IMG/VR virus record: IMGVR_UViG_3300037484_001834 | Length of the DNA stretch: 28,588 nt | Reading direction: 5' to 3' (one strand) | Source of the DNA: a virus | Shown here: in pieces, positions 706 through 28,588 of the stretch | Numbering within the stretch: position 1 is the stretch's first letter | Layout of the letters: each line of letters begins with the position of its first letter | Notes under the pieces: model-generated | The model's input: the letters and a program-made list of their open reading frames with translations, nothing else | Databases searched by the model: none | What the model was told of the DNA's origin: nothing | Program-made: the position numbers and the translations under genes

Positions 706-2250
706 TCAGACTGATTCGTTTTCTAGGTGTGGAGACTCTGTGGGCATATTGAGACCAAGGTGATCGAGCTCCCAGTGCAGGATGCTCAAGTCCTCTTTCG
801 TAAGCGTAGTGGCGTCGAGAATTTCGTCGAGTAGCGTCTGAACGCCAATGAGTCTTCCGGGCGTGATTTCACCCGTGGGCGTGAAAGCCAAAGAATCGTG
901 AATCATTCCAATGGCCAAGGACCTTTCTCGGCCCATGATGGGCAGGTCACGCAGAAAAGCGAGGCTGAGCCGAACGACTTCTATCGGTATCGTTTCGCTT
1001 ATGAGCAATGCGCAAGCCTTCCACATGCTTCGCGGAATGGGTTTTAGAATGACCCCCGGAGCCCCAGGGGCCTCCGAGGCCGGCGCGTTGTCGTCAGCGG
1101 CCATCTGATCGGCGAACCCCTTCTCATCGAACGCGCGAAGCATTTCAGGCGTCGTTCGGCCATCGAGTATGATTCGTCTTCCGGGAACTCTTTCGCTCTC
1201 TAGCGGCTCCGCCGGAGCGTCTGGGAGTTGCTCCCCGCAGAGGTGCCCCCCGCAGGGGTGCTCCCCGCAGAGGTGCTCCCCGCAGGGGTCGTCTACGCTT
1301 TCTTCCGGATCGGCCGGCTGAAAATTTTGACCCGTTCGCATTTTTAGAATCAAGTCACGACGAAATTTTAGACCAGTGGCCCGGGCCCTACGCATAGCTT
1401 CCCGCCTATGCTCGCTGAAGATTTTTGGGCCGATTCCAGGCAAAGGCTCGTAGGCGATGTATGCATAGCCATGCGATAAGGCCGCTTCCCTGAGCTCGGG
1501 GAGATCCGACGCACTACACATGTTCTTTGCATAGCGGTCGGCGAGGATTTCGATACCGTCGGCGCGTCCGAGAGCTTGGCTTGCTGATACGATATCGTTT
1601 GCCACGTTTTGTGACGAGCGGCCTTGTCCAAGAGAGGTATAATACGCGGCCTTTTGGCGGCACCTGAATTGAAGAAGAGTCGAGCTGTCTATGCCCGGGC
1701 ATTTTCCGCAATAAGCTTCTTCAAGGCAGTGTTCGGAAGCTGCCGCGTAAACGCAATCCCTGGGAACAACGAACGAGAGACCGAACCCCTGAATCGTTCC
1801 GACAAAAACGCGCCATATGCTATCGAAGAAAAACTCTCCTATTTCGGGAAATTTTTTGCCAAATGATGTAAGTCCAGCCGCCGCGACGCTGATAGGCGGA
1901 TCGTGAATGTTCAGCACTCCGAGATTGGCCAGTATGGAAATCGTTTGCCCGATCAGTGAAGCCGACATGAAATTTTGCGCCGGTTCGTTGTCTGGCTCTT
2001 TTGGGGAAATCCACATATCCCATCTTTTTGGCATTTCGAAAGAGCAGTCCACGCCATAGACCTGGTCTGCCTGTATACTGTTTCGGTTCGTCATGTTCTG
2101 AGAGTTTTGAGCAGTTGGGCGAGCTCCGTTTACCAGAGCAAATTTCTTGGTTTCTTGGCAACGATCGAGGAGATCGGCAATAGCCATCATTGATGGAGAA
2201 TGCGGTCCAAGGACCCAAACGCGGTTCATGAGGAAACAAGCGCGGTTCAT
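706..2250 (-). CDS. Family-A paralogue, long form: N-terminal RVWVLGPHSPSMMAIADLL module plus a C-terminal domain shared with 20411..21487 (NF-SASLIGQ, DHCLxxAYxGxCPG); contains an in-frame 4x15-nt repeat encoding CGEHL/CGGHL
   Basis: ORF of 514 aa. AAAGGAAAG SD lies upstream of the ATG at 2250. By-eye alignment to three other ORFs in the window (19998..20414, 20411..21487, 21523..21903). Alternative start at 2229 (MNRVW). Confidence 0.6.
   Translation of the reverse strand: MNRACFLMNRVWVLGPHSPSMMAIADLLDRCQETKKFALVNGARPTAQNSQNMTNRNSIQADQVYGVDCSFEMPKRWDMWISPKEPDNEPAQNFMSASLIGQTISILANLGVLNIHDPPISVAAAGLTSFGKKFPEIGEFFFDSIWRVFVGTIQGFGLSFVVPRDCVYAAASEHCLEEAYCGKCPGIDSSTLLQFRCRQKAAYYTSLGQGRSSQNVANDIVSASQALGRADGIEILADRYAKNMCSASDLPELREAALSHGYAYIAYEPLPGIGPKIFSEHRREAMRRARATGLKFRRDLILKMRTGQNFQPADPEESVDDPCGEHLCGEHPCGGHLCGEQLPDAPAEPLESERVPGRRIILDGRTTPEMLRAFDEKGFADQMAADDNAPASEAPGAPGVILKPIPRSMWKACALLISETIPIEVVRLSLAFLRDLPIMGRERSLAIGMIHDSLAFTPTGEITPGRLIGVQTLLDEILDATTLTKEDLSILHWELDHLGLNMPTESPHLENESV
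1230..1289. repeat. 4x 15-nt tandem repeat (gctccccgcagaggt / gccccccgcaggggt), in frame within 706..2250
   Basis: Read directly. Confidence 0.9.
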
Positions 2251-2315
2251 GATTCTTTCCTTTTATTCTCTGGCGGATCGTTCTGTATAAAATGCCGGAG
2301 CCCAATCGTTTACGA

Positions 2316-3017
2316 TTATTTGATTCCGATTTCCTTGCACTTTGCCAGAAGTATTCGGGCCTCAATGGGGTTTACTGACCCTTCTGTTGTAATCACGACT
2401 CTTCCGTCGTCCCGTATGGTTATAGCGAGACTGGTAGGTGTTCTTACGTATCCGATTTTCTGAATGACCTCTGGGTCCGAAGTATGGCATTCGTAAAGGA
2501 CGGCGCCTTGTGGATGTGCAGTGAGATGTTCGTTGGCAAGCACTTTTTCAAATAGTGCCACAGCGTCCAGATCCTTCGGTCGTCCGGCCGCCCGTTTGAT
2601 ATCAATAACGTCTTTGAGGCTTGCTACGAAAACTTTTTCCGATCCGATCTCGAAATCCGCTCCACGCGACTTGAGGTCTTCGAACGAAAAACTGCCGCTC
2701 ACCTTATCGACGAAGTCGACTTGAACAAGCGGCTTTTTACCAAAAATTCTCCAGGGGTGGTTGTCTTTCGCGTAAGGACCTTCCTTCATGTACGAAAGCT
2801 CGTGAAGATCGCCGTCCAGTATTAATGCGACTTTTACGAACTTCGTGAAATCGAATTCGTTTACGACGAAATCGAGGTCTTTTGGGGTTACGGGCGCGCC
2901 ACGGAGAAAGGCCGCCGCGTTTCCGAACAGGATTCCTTCAATGCCACTTTCTCTGATGACTCGTGCAACCGTTTCGAGCACGAGAATCGGATTTTTGGGT
3001 TTTTCCGTGGATTCCAT
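2316..3017 (-). CDS. minimal nucleotidyltransferase-fold protein (pol-beta superfamily; GN-x10-DLDF motif) with a C-terminal helical domain
   Basis: ILFGNAAAFLRGAPVTPKDLDFVV matches the G[SN]...D.D signature of MNT/KNTase-type nucleotidyltransferases. 233 aa. Confidence 0.55.
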   Translation of the reverse strand: MESTEKPKNPILVLETVARVIRESGIEGILFGNAAAFLRGAPVTPKDLDFVVNEFDFTKFVKVALILDGDLHELSYMKEGPYAKDNHPWRIFGKKPLVQVDFVDKVSGSFSFEDLKSRGADFEIGSEKVFVASLKDVIDIKRAAGRPKDLDAVALFEKVLANEHLTAHPQGAVLYECHTSDPEVIQKIGYVRTPTSLAITIRDDGRVVITTEGSVNPIEARILLAKCKEIGIK

Positions 3018-3077
3018 TTTCTGTTTCTTTCGCTTAAGGTCTTGGGGGCGTCCGTGGGTTTTGGCTTCTGTCTTTTC

Positions 3078-27070: not shown

Positions 27071-28144
27071 TCAGTTGACTGGCGTCGAAGCTGCCTTCAG
27101 CTTTGAGGCAATCTCCATCGCCTCACGGCTGGGAGCGGCGGCTTCTTCAGAACGCCCGAGCTTATTAAGAACGATCACGAGCACATCGAGGCTTCCGGCC
27201 AAATCGGCGAGGAAGGCATCGTTATGTTCCTTGCAAAGGTTTCGGTAGATGCCGATTGTCTCGTAAAGGGCGTCGAGGCCTTTTTCGTCACTGAGAATAA
27301 AGCCGTAATTGCCGAGAGTAGAGGCAAAACTCGGAAGAAAGGCATTGGGATTGGCATTCATCAACGAGCGATAGATCCCAATTGCTATTTCGCATGCGCT
27401 CAGGGCTCTTTGTCTATTGTATTCCTTGTTCTGGTCGAGAGCGATGTATTTGATGGCCGCATTATTGAGACACGCGGCGAGATTGGGGGCAAAAACGTCT
27501 CCATGCGTTTCGCAGAGTTTTTGATAGATGTCCATTGCTTCACGAATGACCTCTATACCCGCTTCGGCGGTTAGCATGGTGCCTAAATTGTTTAGACTCA
27601 TGGCGAGATCAGGAAGGAAATCCCCATAATGTATCTTGGTCAGTTGGCGAAAAATTTCAGTTGCCTCACGAGCGACCTCAATCGCCTCTTCGTAAAGGCC
27701 CAGGTCACTAAGACTGTTGCCAAGGTGATTGAGCATTAAGCCCAAGTCGGAAAGGTAGAGATCAGGATTGGCAGCAACGAGACAGCGGCATATTTCCGTC
27801 GCCTCGCGAGAGGCGTTCAGAGATTGCGCAAAATGCCCCAAGCTACCGAGCATGATACCAAGATTGCTCAAGCCTCTAGCGAGCTCGATGGAAAAGGTAT
27901 TCGGATCGGTTTTGGTCAAGGATCTGTAGGCTTCCGCCGAATTGAAGGCGGCCTCGAACGCTTTTGGGAAATTGCCCTCGGACTCGAGCTTATTTCCAAG
28001 AGTCCTGAGCTTCTTGGCGAGGATCGAGCGAGAGGCATCCGAGTCGGCCTCCCGCAAGGAGCGGTAGGTTTCCTCCAGCTCCAGCTCGAGACAGCTTTTG
28101 CTCTCGGTTTTGGGTTCTTGCGTTTCGGATTTTTCGTCGTTCAT
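27071..28144 (-). CDS. tetratricopeptide-repeat (TPR_10/12-like) protein
   Basis: About 8 tandem 42-aa repeats with the LxxLGxxL...G...EA...EI.R.L pattern. ATGA overlap with the upstream RHH gene. Confidence 0.75.
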   Translation of the reverse strand: MNDEKSETQEPKTESKSCLELELEETYRSLREADSDASRSILAKKLRTLGNKLESEGNFPKAFEAAFNSAEAYRSLTKTDPNTFSIELARGLSNLGIMLGSLGHFAQSLNASREATEICRCLVAANPDLYLSDLGLMLNHLGNSLSDLGLYEEAIEVAREATEIFRQLTKIHYGDFLPDLAMSLNNLGTMLTAEAGIEVIREAMDIYQKLCETHGDVFAPNLAACLNNAAIKYIALDQNKEYNRQRALSACEIAIGIYRSLMNANPNAFLPSFASTLGNYGFILSDEKGLDALYETIGIYRNLCKEHNDAFLADLAGSLDVLVIVLNKLGRSEEAAAPSREAMEIASKLKAASTPVN

Positions 28145-28401
28145 AGGCCAAGATCTTTGTAGAGGTCTTTTTTGTTTTTGAAATGCTTCACGTTCTTACC
28201 GGTCTTGGTTGCCCGAAGCGCGCACACGGTAAGGTCATTTGGGATTCGCGCATCAAAAGGCAGCCCGCGCTGGAGTTTGATCTGACGATAAAGGAGGTGA
28301 ATGGCCTTCGATGGTGTGAGCCCAAGTCGATTGAGTATCGCTTCAACGTCACTCTTGAGGCTCGGCTCTACTCGCGCTCGTATAGTGGCGGTTTTTTTCA
28401 T
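28141..28401 (-). CDS. RelB/DinJ-family ribbon-helix-helix DNA-binding protein (antitoxin-like); no toxin partner apparent
   Basis: IRARVEPSLKSDVEAILNRLGLTPSKAIHLLYRQI matches the RelB/DinJ RHH pattern. 86 aa. TTGACA -35-like hexamer 30 nt upstream. Confidence 0.6.
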   Translation of the reverse strand: MKKTATIRARVEPSLKSDVEAILNRLGLTPSKAIHLLYRQIKLQRGLPFDARIPNDLTVCALRATKTGKNVKHFKNKKDLYKDLGL

Positions 28402-28464
28402 GGCAGAAATGTGGGCTCATTGCAGCTACATGTCAAGAACTTAGAGGCGCATAGCCTACGGACC

Positions 28465-28588
28465 AATAACCGCAGGTCCCTTGCGGGGTGTGCAGCGGAG
28501 TCTCCGCAGGCGAGTCCCGTAGGGGTGGAGCCCCACGGGGGCGGAGCCCGTTATGGGTCAAGGGCCTGCGGCCCTTGCGGGGTGTGGG
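28465..28588. repeat. GC-rich cluster of short hairpins and direct repeats (CCGCAGGtcccTTGCGG, GCGGAGtCTCCGC, GCCCCacgGGGGC; CCCTTGCGGGGTGTG x2, 95 bp apart) at the window edge
   Basis: Read directly. Truncated by the window end. Confidence 0.6.

Follow-up and report, generated by a model that had tools for sequence, protein, structure and literature searches.

The 28,588-nucleotide stretch of DNA analysed here, called the window below, is the IMG/VR virus record IMGVR_UViG_3300037484_001834 and corresponds to an entire JGI contig, all plausible genes of which lie on the minus strand. Three of these genes carry the short GC-rich motif GTGCTCYCCGCAGG, and copies of its core recur in an intergenic hairpin cluster (28465-28588) which, because the window spans the whole contig, sits at the contig end (Table 1). 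A search for GTGCTCYCCGCAGG allowing at most one mismatch returned 13 matches, all on the plus strand, against 0.01 expected from 100 shuffles of the window. The matches are grouped in three minus-strand genes, coding for the product of the open reading frame (ORF) 706..2250, an ATPase (8229..9458) and the product of ORF 9867..11639, proteins that have no family in common. A first-pass annotation of this DNA, made from its letters alone, had described a motif tandemly expanded in three unrelated genes, and this description was confirmed.

The 7-nt core of the motif, CCGCAGG, was counted 21 times on both strands of the window, against 4.74 ± 1.98 expected. As the first-pass annotation had seen, it recurs in the terminal cluster, at 28470 and 28504 as CCGCAGG and at 28565 as CCTGCGG. 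Outside this cluster and the three arrays, 5 copies are found in about 28 kb; this is the chance frequency, and it makes a dispersed recognition site unlikely. The proposal, also made in that annotation, that the core is recognised by a protein (a methyltransferase or restriction enzyme, a nicking activity as at an oriT, an uptake or a Chi-like system) and has been spread by selection can appeal to the two DNA methyltransferase genes of the window and to the grouping of cores at the contig end, ahead of the first gene. Dispersed sites, however, are not distributed as intragenic tandem amplifications, and within 16 kb of a second contig carrying the repeat in a RuBisCO-like gene, described below, the extended core CCCCGCAGGGG is restricted to the insert. 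We consider this explanation very improbable.

At locus 1, the units read CCCC/CCTC-TGC-GGGG-AGCA and are translated as PCGEH-LCGEH-PCGGH-LCGEQ in an inter-domain linker; four copies had been announced there, and the array is present, its fourth copy carrying 2 mismatches. Locus 2 reads ACCCCTGCGGGGAGCACC CTGCTGACCGCAGGT CCTGCGGGGAGCACC on the coding strand and is translated as TPAGSTLLTAGPAGST. Its two exact copies (8569-8582 and 8599-8612) surround an inverted variant, giving CCGCAGG-A-CCTGCGG on the plus strand, and the resulting segment TPAGST-LLTAG-PAGST lies between the SDGQ (ABC) signature and the FDDPE Walker B motif, exactly as first described. Locus 3 encodes (PAEST)x8, beginning five codons past the ATG. 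The eight perfect copies reported there were recovered (8.4 perfect copies with Tandem Repeats Finder, TRF), a number that comes from one short-read assembly, so that the exact copy number of this perfect 126-bp array is not fixed. Loci 2 and 3 share the frame CCT GCG G.. while locus 1 is shifted (xCC TGC GGG). The earlier statement that the motif is read in different frames thus holds for locus 1 against the other two, and the window contains just two reading frames, not three.

Table 1. Repeat loci of the window, the genes that carry them and the elements of the terminal cluster (TRF, Tandem Repeats Finder).
Feature	Position	Strand or location	Remarks
Locus 1: 15-nt array, 4.3 copies	1225..1289	(-)	TRF period 15, 88% matches; also a 30-nt dimer x2 at 96%
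Host gene 1: 514-aa protein	706..2250	(-)	no Pfam, PHROG or PADLOC match
Locus 2: 48-nt in-frame insertion (direct unit, inverted variant unit, direct unit)	8568..8615	(-)	75% GC
Host gene 2: 409-aa Rad50/SMC/PtuA-type ABC ATPase (AAA_21/AAA_15)	8229..9458	(-)	best PADLOC models HEC-01A, PDC-M07A
Locus 3: perfect 15-nt array, 8.4 copies of CTCC-TGC-GGAG-AGCA	11503..11628	(-)	TRF; 15 nt after the start codon
Host gene 3: 590-aa protein	9867..11639	(-)	no Pfam match; rare family, 9 members among 5.8 billion proteins
Intergenic hairpin/REP-like cluster, contig end, upstream of relB	28465..28588	(.)	hairpins, shared modules
ACCGCAGGTCCCTTGCGGGGTGTG	28468-28492	terminal cluster	identical to L011 module over 24 nt
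GTAG + hairpin	28516-28539	terminal cluster	28519-28534 reads GTAG GGG..CCCC
8-bp stem CAAGGGCC-TGC-GGCCCTTG	28559-28577	terminal cluster	
Direct repeat CCCTTGCGGGGTGTG	28478 and 28572	terminal cluster	

The key anatomical feature, missed by the first-pass annotation, is a covarying mini-hairpin in each unit. On the gene-sense strand, the 15-nt unit consists of a 4-nt arm (NNCC), a TGC loop, a complementary arm (GGN'N') and a 4-nt spacer (RGCR), and the dyad NNCC-TGC/GCA-GGN'N' was found at every array. The arms are CCCC-TGC-GGGG at loci 1 and 2 and CTCC-TGC-GGAG at locus 3; the variable base 'y' of the motif as first written therefore changes together with the base that follows CCGCAGG. Relatives add the pairs GTCC/GGAC, GACC/GGTC and CCCT/AGGG. 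Since a 3' arm can pair with either the preceding or the next arm, two folds are open to an array: successive mini-hairpins or a single long fold-back. Folded as single-stranded DNA, the locus 3 array folds back at -40 / -41.6 kcal/mol (z -5.2 / -5.7), and the sense strand of the ATPase insert gives a fold z of -3.3.

The stem was evaluated on 29 distinct units taken from all arrays and cut by register. Overall, 91.4% of the stem cells are paired, and changes on both sides of the stem number 26, against 11.5 ± 2.6 in shuffles, none of 500 shuffles reaching this value; when the 3' partner was slid by 1-3 columns, pairing was only 40-59%. The outside control consisted of 100 unrelated arrays of period 15 nt built around CCTGCGG and taken from viral contigs (IMG/VR, CCTGCGG three times at 15-nt spacing, more than 120 matches), which mostly encode the pentapeptide repeat ADLRG or PA-rich linkers. 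Complementary flanks were found in 8 of these 100 arrays, a chance level of about 6% being expected, and many unrelated viral CCTGCGG arrays encode ADLRG but lack the dyad. Stop codons are absent from all six frames in 27 of the 29 units, compared with 68% of composition-matched random units. Three candidate identities were rejected: the pentapeptide repeat (A[D/N]LXX) or another Pfam repeat, for which there was no Pfam match; a known structured RNA, with no Rfam match at gathering score or at E<=10; and a CRISPR repeat, suggested by a resemblance (GTGCTCCCCGC...) that received no support from Rfam.

Relatives syntenic with the window were located through the family of the ORF 9867 product; the sequences compared are designated by L and P numbers. 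A comparison of copy numbers among relatives, which the first-pass annotation had recommended, showed that at the same sites the numbers differ, the units have been replaced or the repeat is absent. In the ORF 706 family, the array occupies the same linker position with 4 copies in the window, 6 in L005 and L006 and 3.5 degenerate ones in L015. At the N-terminus of the ORF 9867 family, the 8.4 copies of the window are matched in L001-L004 by 3.4 or 2.4 copies (3.4 in L001, 2.4 in L004) of another unit, AGCGGTCCTGCGGAC, bordered by degenerate A-type units, in L015 by one inverted and one direct copy, and in L005, P0002 and P0007 by no repeat at all. Between L001 and L015 this N-terminal repeat is replaced, although the sequences next to it are 99.8% identical on one side and 94.6% on the other. 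L005 and L006 are 99.5% identical, yet the array in a coiled-coil/Roadblock protein is rearranged between them. In L006, this protein contains an insert of about 45 amino acids (GPAVG/LLSAG, in units of GPAVG and LL(S/P)AG) that is absent from the orthologues of the window, L004 and L002. The repeat thus behaves as the length-variable variable-number tandem repeat (VNTR) that had been proposed, with 4, 6 or 3.5 copies in one family and 8.4, 3.4, 2.4, 1 or 0 in the other.

The coiled-coil protein, of about 600 amino acids, belongs to a conserved trio of genes together with a Roadblock/LC7 and an OmpA-family protein (window 12651-15639, minus strand; L004 413-3323; L006 52-2737). Its conserved C-terminal domain has a weak, sub-threshold match to Roadblock/LC7 (E 0.0055), and the GPAVG/LLSAG array of L005 and L006 sits in the linker before this domain. 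In L015, positions 4566-4620 hold a second, different tandem repeat of the 15-nt hairpin type, GCG[C/T]C-TAC-GACGC in 3.7 copies, which encodes a PTTRA-rich C-terminal extension of the homologue of window ORF 7761..8135 and suggests a general tendency of these elements to acquire hairpin repeats.

In several independent assemblies, contigs have an end within an array or cluster (L005 at 1-185, L007 and L008 at their starts, the window at 28588), so that the repeats fragment short-read assemblies of these elements. For array lengths that vary within a population such ends are no more than suggestive. These breakpoints, together with a perfect array of 126 bp that approaches the read length, would be expected if the repeats had been mis-joined or collapsed by short-read assemblers. 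However, assemblies made independently (JGI, ENA, NCBI and Logan) contain identical arrays (L001-L003 from two Logan and one JGI assembly; L013, L025 and L026 from one JGI and two ENA assemblies; L147 and L148), and all genic arrays keep the reading frame. An artefact is disfavoured to the point of being hardly credible as the source of the arrays, although it could affect the exact copy number at locus 3.

Comparison of the ATPase with its homologues characterised locus 2 as an insertion. A homologue at 78% identity has exactly 16 residues fewer at the site, and the 16-aa insert is found in one of 40 aligned sequences, the other 39 having a loop of 3-4 residues there. The AlphaFold model of the protein (pLDDT 84, pTM 0.86) has a Rad50/SMC/PtuA-type fold, and in this AF2 model residues 282-300, which contain the insert, form a low-pLDDT coil that connects helix 265-281 to the Walker-B strand (301-305); the structural check suggested in the first-pass annotation thus places the insertion in a loop. 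At the edges of the insert only ACC is repeated, and no consistent target site or duplication is apparent. The closest named homologues of the ATPase are from Myxococcota (43% identity). A 129-aa ORF (9455-9844, minus strand) with weak matches to PADLOC PDC-M32A overlaps the start of the gene for this PtuA/AriA-like ATPase, and relatives have a 63-aa ORF downstream of it; the ATPase and its small neighbouring ORF may form a small defence-type operon.

A 45-bit tandem-unit pattern run against JGI metagenome contigs gave four matches, three of which (L011-L013) were informative, while the fourth, L014, was set aside as a probable chance match on a 74% GC contig. L012, together with L147 and L148, represents a different type of element, whose genes include those for a Cas12f/TnpB-like protein of 944 aa, a protein-primed PolB, a dCMP deaminase and a C5 methyltransferase; one JGI sample is the source of L147 and of the window's relatives L005 and L015. 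In L012 and L147, the motif lies in a called gene of 213/238 amino acids and is read in the third sense frame (LRGAP/LRGAL), with inverted units mixed in and a unit order that differs between the two contigs. Related units are also present in a variable region of the C5 methyltransferase and in a 449-aa gene of this type of element. The large protein of the element has 944-946 amino acids and a Cas12f1-like TNB domain (TnpB/Cas12-like); the positions noted for the element are L012 1573-4407 and L147 284-3124 and 10431-12833.

L013, L025 and L026 look chromosomal, with housekeeping genes and 45-47% GC. Their RuBisCO-like protein (L013 377-1681; L025 10001-11305) contains a 34-aa insert found in one of 19 sequences and absent from 18 homologues of 59-80% identity; the closest named homologues of the protein are from 'Deltaproteobacteria' metagenome-assembled genomes (60-64%). 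The DNA of the insert has 74% GC in a 45% GC contig, ends in GGGGCGCTCCCCGCAGGGGTGCTCCCCGCAGGGGTG and carries the motif in antisense orientation, read as (R/C)SPQG; AGGGC is repeated on both sides. The AlphaFold model (pLDDT 85) shows the insert as a coil of pLDDT <50 between a helix and a strand, in a surface loop. The insert is a composite of hairpins, of which the first ~60 nt are other small palindromes not seen elsewhere (TCTCCC..GGGAGA, GGGTC-TGC-GACCC and CCCTC-GCA-GAGGG).

The repeat family is therefore carried by at least seven unrelated genes and read in four frames: the three window genes, the coiled-coil gene of L006, the 213/238-aa gene, the C5 methyltransferase, the 449-aa gene and the RuBisCO-like gene. 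The motif extends beyond the element represented by the window and beyond the two frames used there. Stretches of 14-36 nt of shared sequence are read as PAGST/PAEST, CGEH(P/L), LRGAP and, in antisense, CSPQG in unrelated genes, which bears out the first-pass view that the motif is propagated as DNA and not as a peptide. Selection on the peptide, as proposed for the Borg repeats, would make the arrays disordered PAxST linkers or a Cys/His metal-binding CGEH repeat and their likeness at the DNA level incidental. The products are indeed low-complexity peptides rich in P/A/S/T/G/E in linkers and termini, as in the Borg tandem-repeat proteins (PMC9879509), and the CGEH repeat is kept, in varying number, in all three ORF 706 homologues. 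Yet one 14-nt DNA sequence is read in four frames in unrelated proteins, the motif is also present in non-coding clusters, covariation of the arms is seen in the nucleotides whichever frame is read, and none of the dozens of homologues shares the insert of the ATPase or that of the RuBisCO-like protein. Peptide selection is strongly disfavoured as the general cause.

The non-coding copies link the coding arrays to a larger intergenic repeat, resembling repetitive extragenic palindromic (REP) sequences. Window positions 28469-28588 are 83% identical over 123 nt to a dense non-coding repeat cluster on L011, an unrelated 3.6-kb contig. The L011 cluster comprises a 15-nt array of 3.9 copies, a 79-nt unit repeated 2.3 times, GGGGCGAAGCCCCGTA repeated 3.8 times (GTAG plus a hairpin), three copies of GTAGGGGCGAAGCCCC (GTAG, then a hairpin) and inverted copies of about 70 nt around a small gene, with 60-70-nt arms that are 83-87% complementary. 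The ATPase insert shares CTGCTGACCGCAGGTCC..TGCGGGG with this repeat and with window 28468-28492, and within the 79-nt unit, GGGTGAGCCCCGCAGGGG is complementary to the tandem-repeat unit at 85%. Given these shared modules at the window end, in L011, in the ATPase insert and in the 79-nt unit, the coding arrays look like amplified pieces of a REP-like element. A 20-mer of the terminal cluster gave no match in IMG/VR, the L011 cluster none among plasmids, and no sigma-70-like promoter was found in the terminal cluster.

Such a relationship raises the possibility of a non-autonomous element, similar to REPINs or PATEs, excised and inserted by a single-strand hairpin-specific transposase (RAYT, IS200/IS605 Y1 or another) whose gene would lie elsewhere in the host or element, slippage serving only for local expansion. 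The inserts are discrete pieces of GC-rich DNA that all homologues lack; one sequence is found in differing types of replicon and on a chromosomal contig; GTAG followed by a hairpin in the intergenic clusters (window and L011) and the inverted copies around the small L011 gene are hallmarks of REP/REPIN sequences (PMC3116915); and AGGGC stands at both edges of the RuBisCO-like insert. Against this, no Y1 or other transposase domain was detected in the window (Pfam, 38 ORFs) or in the gene lists of L025 and L147. The TnpB/Cas12f-like gene of L012 and L147 is located about 370 nt from the repeat-bearing gene (about 510 nt from the array); a 116-aa ORF separates the two genes, and TnpA is absent. 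REPINs, moreover, are hardly ever found within genes, and the ATPase insert shows no consistent target site or duplication. A transposase-driven origin is the main rival explanation but, in our opinion, doubtful. The miniature inserting element considered in the first-pass annotation is thus upheld as regards insertion (a 48-nt insert absent from 39 ATPase homologues, a 34-aa insert absent from 18 RuBisCO-like homologues and a module in common with the intergenic repeat), whereas no mobilising enzyme was found.

The explanation we favour, with a probability of roughly 0.55, is that a self-complementary 15-nt module spreads and expands at the DNA level, by slippage or template switching, and persists in loops, linkers and termini only, where the added protein segments look like by-products of the DNA-level process. 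The unit would have originated as a sub-segment of the larger GC-rich REP-like intergenic repeat (about 79 nt) seen at the window end and in L011. Hairpin-stabilised replication slippage would then add or remove steps of 15 or 30 nt, and fold-back or template-switch synthesis could produce the inverted units within arrays and copy a change in one arm onto the other, so that complementarity would be maintained with no need of selection. As a source of mutations that extend the complementarity of arms, template switching at quasipalindromes is well established (PMC7202029, PMC3820800). Copies at new sites may be seeded by ectopic template switching or by some enzyme. Selection would act only as a filter: units are multiples of three, free of stop codons, and kept where a disordered insert is tolerated (N- and C-termini, inter-domain linkers, surface loops), the peptide (PAGST/PAEST/PADSG/GPAVG, CGEH, LRGAP or CSPQG) being set by the frame entered.

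Several observations weigh against this explanation. Evidence for slippage or template switching is indirect, and the unit variants are kin by descent, so that the shuffle statistics overstate their independence. A unit compared with its own reverse complement matches at 10 of 15 positions, no better than shuffled units do, and this self-similarity was dropped as evidence. The sharing of 14-36 identical nucleotides across replicons, on contigs of 45% and 53% GC, is not easily produced by local errors of replication alone and hints at active or horizontal transfer, and individual loci may have a peptide-level function, such as metal binding by Cys/His repeats. Finally, among non-Watson-Crick stem positions on the gene-sense strand, G.T occurs 24 times and A.C once, whatever the orientation of the unit, an asymmetry that a strand-neutral DNA mechanism does not predict and that could reflect pairing at the RNA level or a strand-biased C-to-T mutation.

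This 24:1 preference for G.U-compatible positions, inverted units included, suggests that the hairpins might act in RNA, in which case arrays within mRNAs or in the 5' leader of relB would tune translation or stability, or would bind or be processed by an RNA-binding protein, and selection for RNA pairing would produce the covariation. Genic copies are nearly all in sense orientation, and the locus 3 array begins 15 nt past the start codon, where structure affects initiation. But no Rfam family was matched, the RuBisCO-like copy is antisense, the terminal module CCGCAGG-TCC-CTTGCGG has its wobble on the opposite strand, presence or absence and copy number change quickly between near-identical relatives, at odds with a conserved regulatory role, and a C-to-T bias on the non-transcribed strand could also give the asymmetry. 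We therefore hold a role in RNA to be unlikely.

A bolder version of the DNA-level explanation, which we offer only tentatively, is that the repeat is an undescribed form of miniature mobile DNA: a coding-tolerant minisatellite with a 15-nt hairpin unit, derived from a REP-like sequence, which moves between replicons and genomes, lands in any frame and then expands. The replicons concerned would be a plasmid-like element, an element with a protein-primed PolB and a chromosome of deltaproteobacterial type, and the repeat could conceivably be a bacterial counterpart of the Borg repeats in which the unit is common to the loci and constrained in structure. Its driving force might be an enzyme specific for single-strand hairpins or the replication machinery of the elements themselves. 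If the DNA-level explanation is correct, selfish or error-generated DNA would have a route to new disordered protein segments in bacteria, arising even in conserved enzymes such as an ABC ATPase or a RuBisCO-like protein, with a peptide determined by the chance of frame. The arrays offer a sequence-defined system for the study of hairpin-repeat seeding and expansion, of mutational (template-switch) versus selected compensation in stems and of the repeat-proneness of extrachromosomal elements such as Borgs. They are also practical strain markers for these uncultivated elements, and those who assemble or annotate such DNA should be warned that contigs break at them.

The contig looks like part of a plasmid- or ICE-like (integrative and conjugative element) replicon of an uncultivated bacterium, judging from the orientation of its genes on one strand, a DUF3560-methyltransferase typical of conjugative plasmids, an N6/N4 methylase, RelB, OmpA, Roadblock and RtcB. 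Sequence affinities give weak hints of a host among Myxococcota or 'Deltaproteobacteria'. The upstream end of the gene string (25667-28401, minus strand) codes for a RelB antitoxin, a TPR protein and an RtcB RNA ligase, which, with an FGE-sulfatase-domain protein (19120..19932), is an unusual cargo for a plasmid-like element. A 903-aa protein (22371-25082, minus strand) contains a major-vault-protein shoulder domain and a vault repeat; tblastn against 72,556 plasmids gave no homologue. A 13-nt match to the inverted unit (CTGACCGCAGGTC) occurs at 7089-7101 in ORF 6630..7133 (minus strand), within a lipoprotein signal peptide (ALLLTAGLVFGGC). It is not an insertion, since a homologue has equal length, and may be a chance match or a possible source sequence. 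A 51-nt unit repeated twice at 83% identity (12048-12150, ORF 11682..12140) is unrelated to the 15-nt motif.

The tandem-unit pattern had no match in IMG/VR; its two matches among GTDB representative genomes, in high-GC actinobacteria, were judged to be due to chance, and the nine matches of CCGCAGGNCCYTGCGGGG in IMG/VR, on unrelated high-GC sequences, were rejected. A protein scan of IMG/VR for the ORF 9867 family and a megablast of 25 kb against phage and plasmid collections gave no match, exact-protein look-ups of the window genes with chosen start codons found none on record, and NCBIfam provided no names for 10 window proteins.

Among known systems, slipped-strand VNTRs are matched in two respects: period-15 units stand head to tail within ORFs at loci 1 and 3 with the frame kept, and copy number at the same site differs between close relatives. 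Imperfect inverted repeats are also hotspots of intramolecular template switching that makes their arms more complementary, a process which would give both compensatory changes and inverted units (PMC7202029, PMC3820800); it is known, however, as a mechanism of point mutations and short tracts in laboratory reporters, not as a source of dispersed in-frame coding arrays. Coding inverted repeats have also been described in the mitochondria of Nematomorpha (PMC6649704). PARCELs are intragenic, dyad-symmetric tandem repeats of variable copy number, associated with mobile DNA and for which intragenomic shuffling was suggested (PMC2996958), but their units are of 75 nt and encode a conserved amphipathic motif of 25 residues, whereas here a DNA hairpin is conserved and no peptide. 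Similarity to REP/REPIN sequences is limited to the intergenic clusters, in which GTAG precedes a GC-rich hairpin, copies are tandem and inverted, and inverted repeats of ~70 nt flank the L011 gene (PMC3116915). REPINs are extragenic, and a genome has tens to hundreds of them but one RAYT gene, whereas most copies studied here are inside ORFs and no RAYT was seen in the window or the contigs compared.

The system acts like Rickettsia palindromic elements (RPEs) and like Borg repeats but fails the defining features of both. RPEs, which belong to the intragenic MITEs, are palindromic selfish DNA found in frame at permissive positions of unrelated, often conserved genes and also between genes (PMC10969869), and the palindromic in-frame inserts absent from orthologues (present in 1 of 40 ATPase and 1 of 19 RuBisCO-like sequences) recall them. 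RPEs, however, are single-copy elements of about 150 bp with a conserved peptide per family read in one frame, while the repeats described here consist of tandemly expandable 15-nt units forming inserts of 48 to ~135 nt, read in four frames with inverted copies mixed in, on mobile-element-like contigs of uncultivated bacteria. The tandem repeats of Borgs (aaTRs), extrachromosomal elements of Methanoperedens, are comparable in their perfect or near-perfect repeats within ORFs, unit lengths divisible by three, fast turnover of copy number and units, disordered and often terminal segments, and genes nearly all on one strand (PMC9879509). Borg units are virtually all unique to their locus and enriched in A (PMC9879509), whereas a single GC-rich unit family with a covarying hairpin is common here to loci, genes and replicons (the three window loci, L005, L011, L012, L013 and L147), with units of 14-20% A and 67-75% GC in contigs of 52-53% GC, where OmpA and RelB indicate a bacterial setting.

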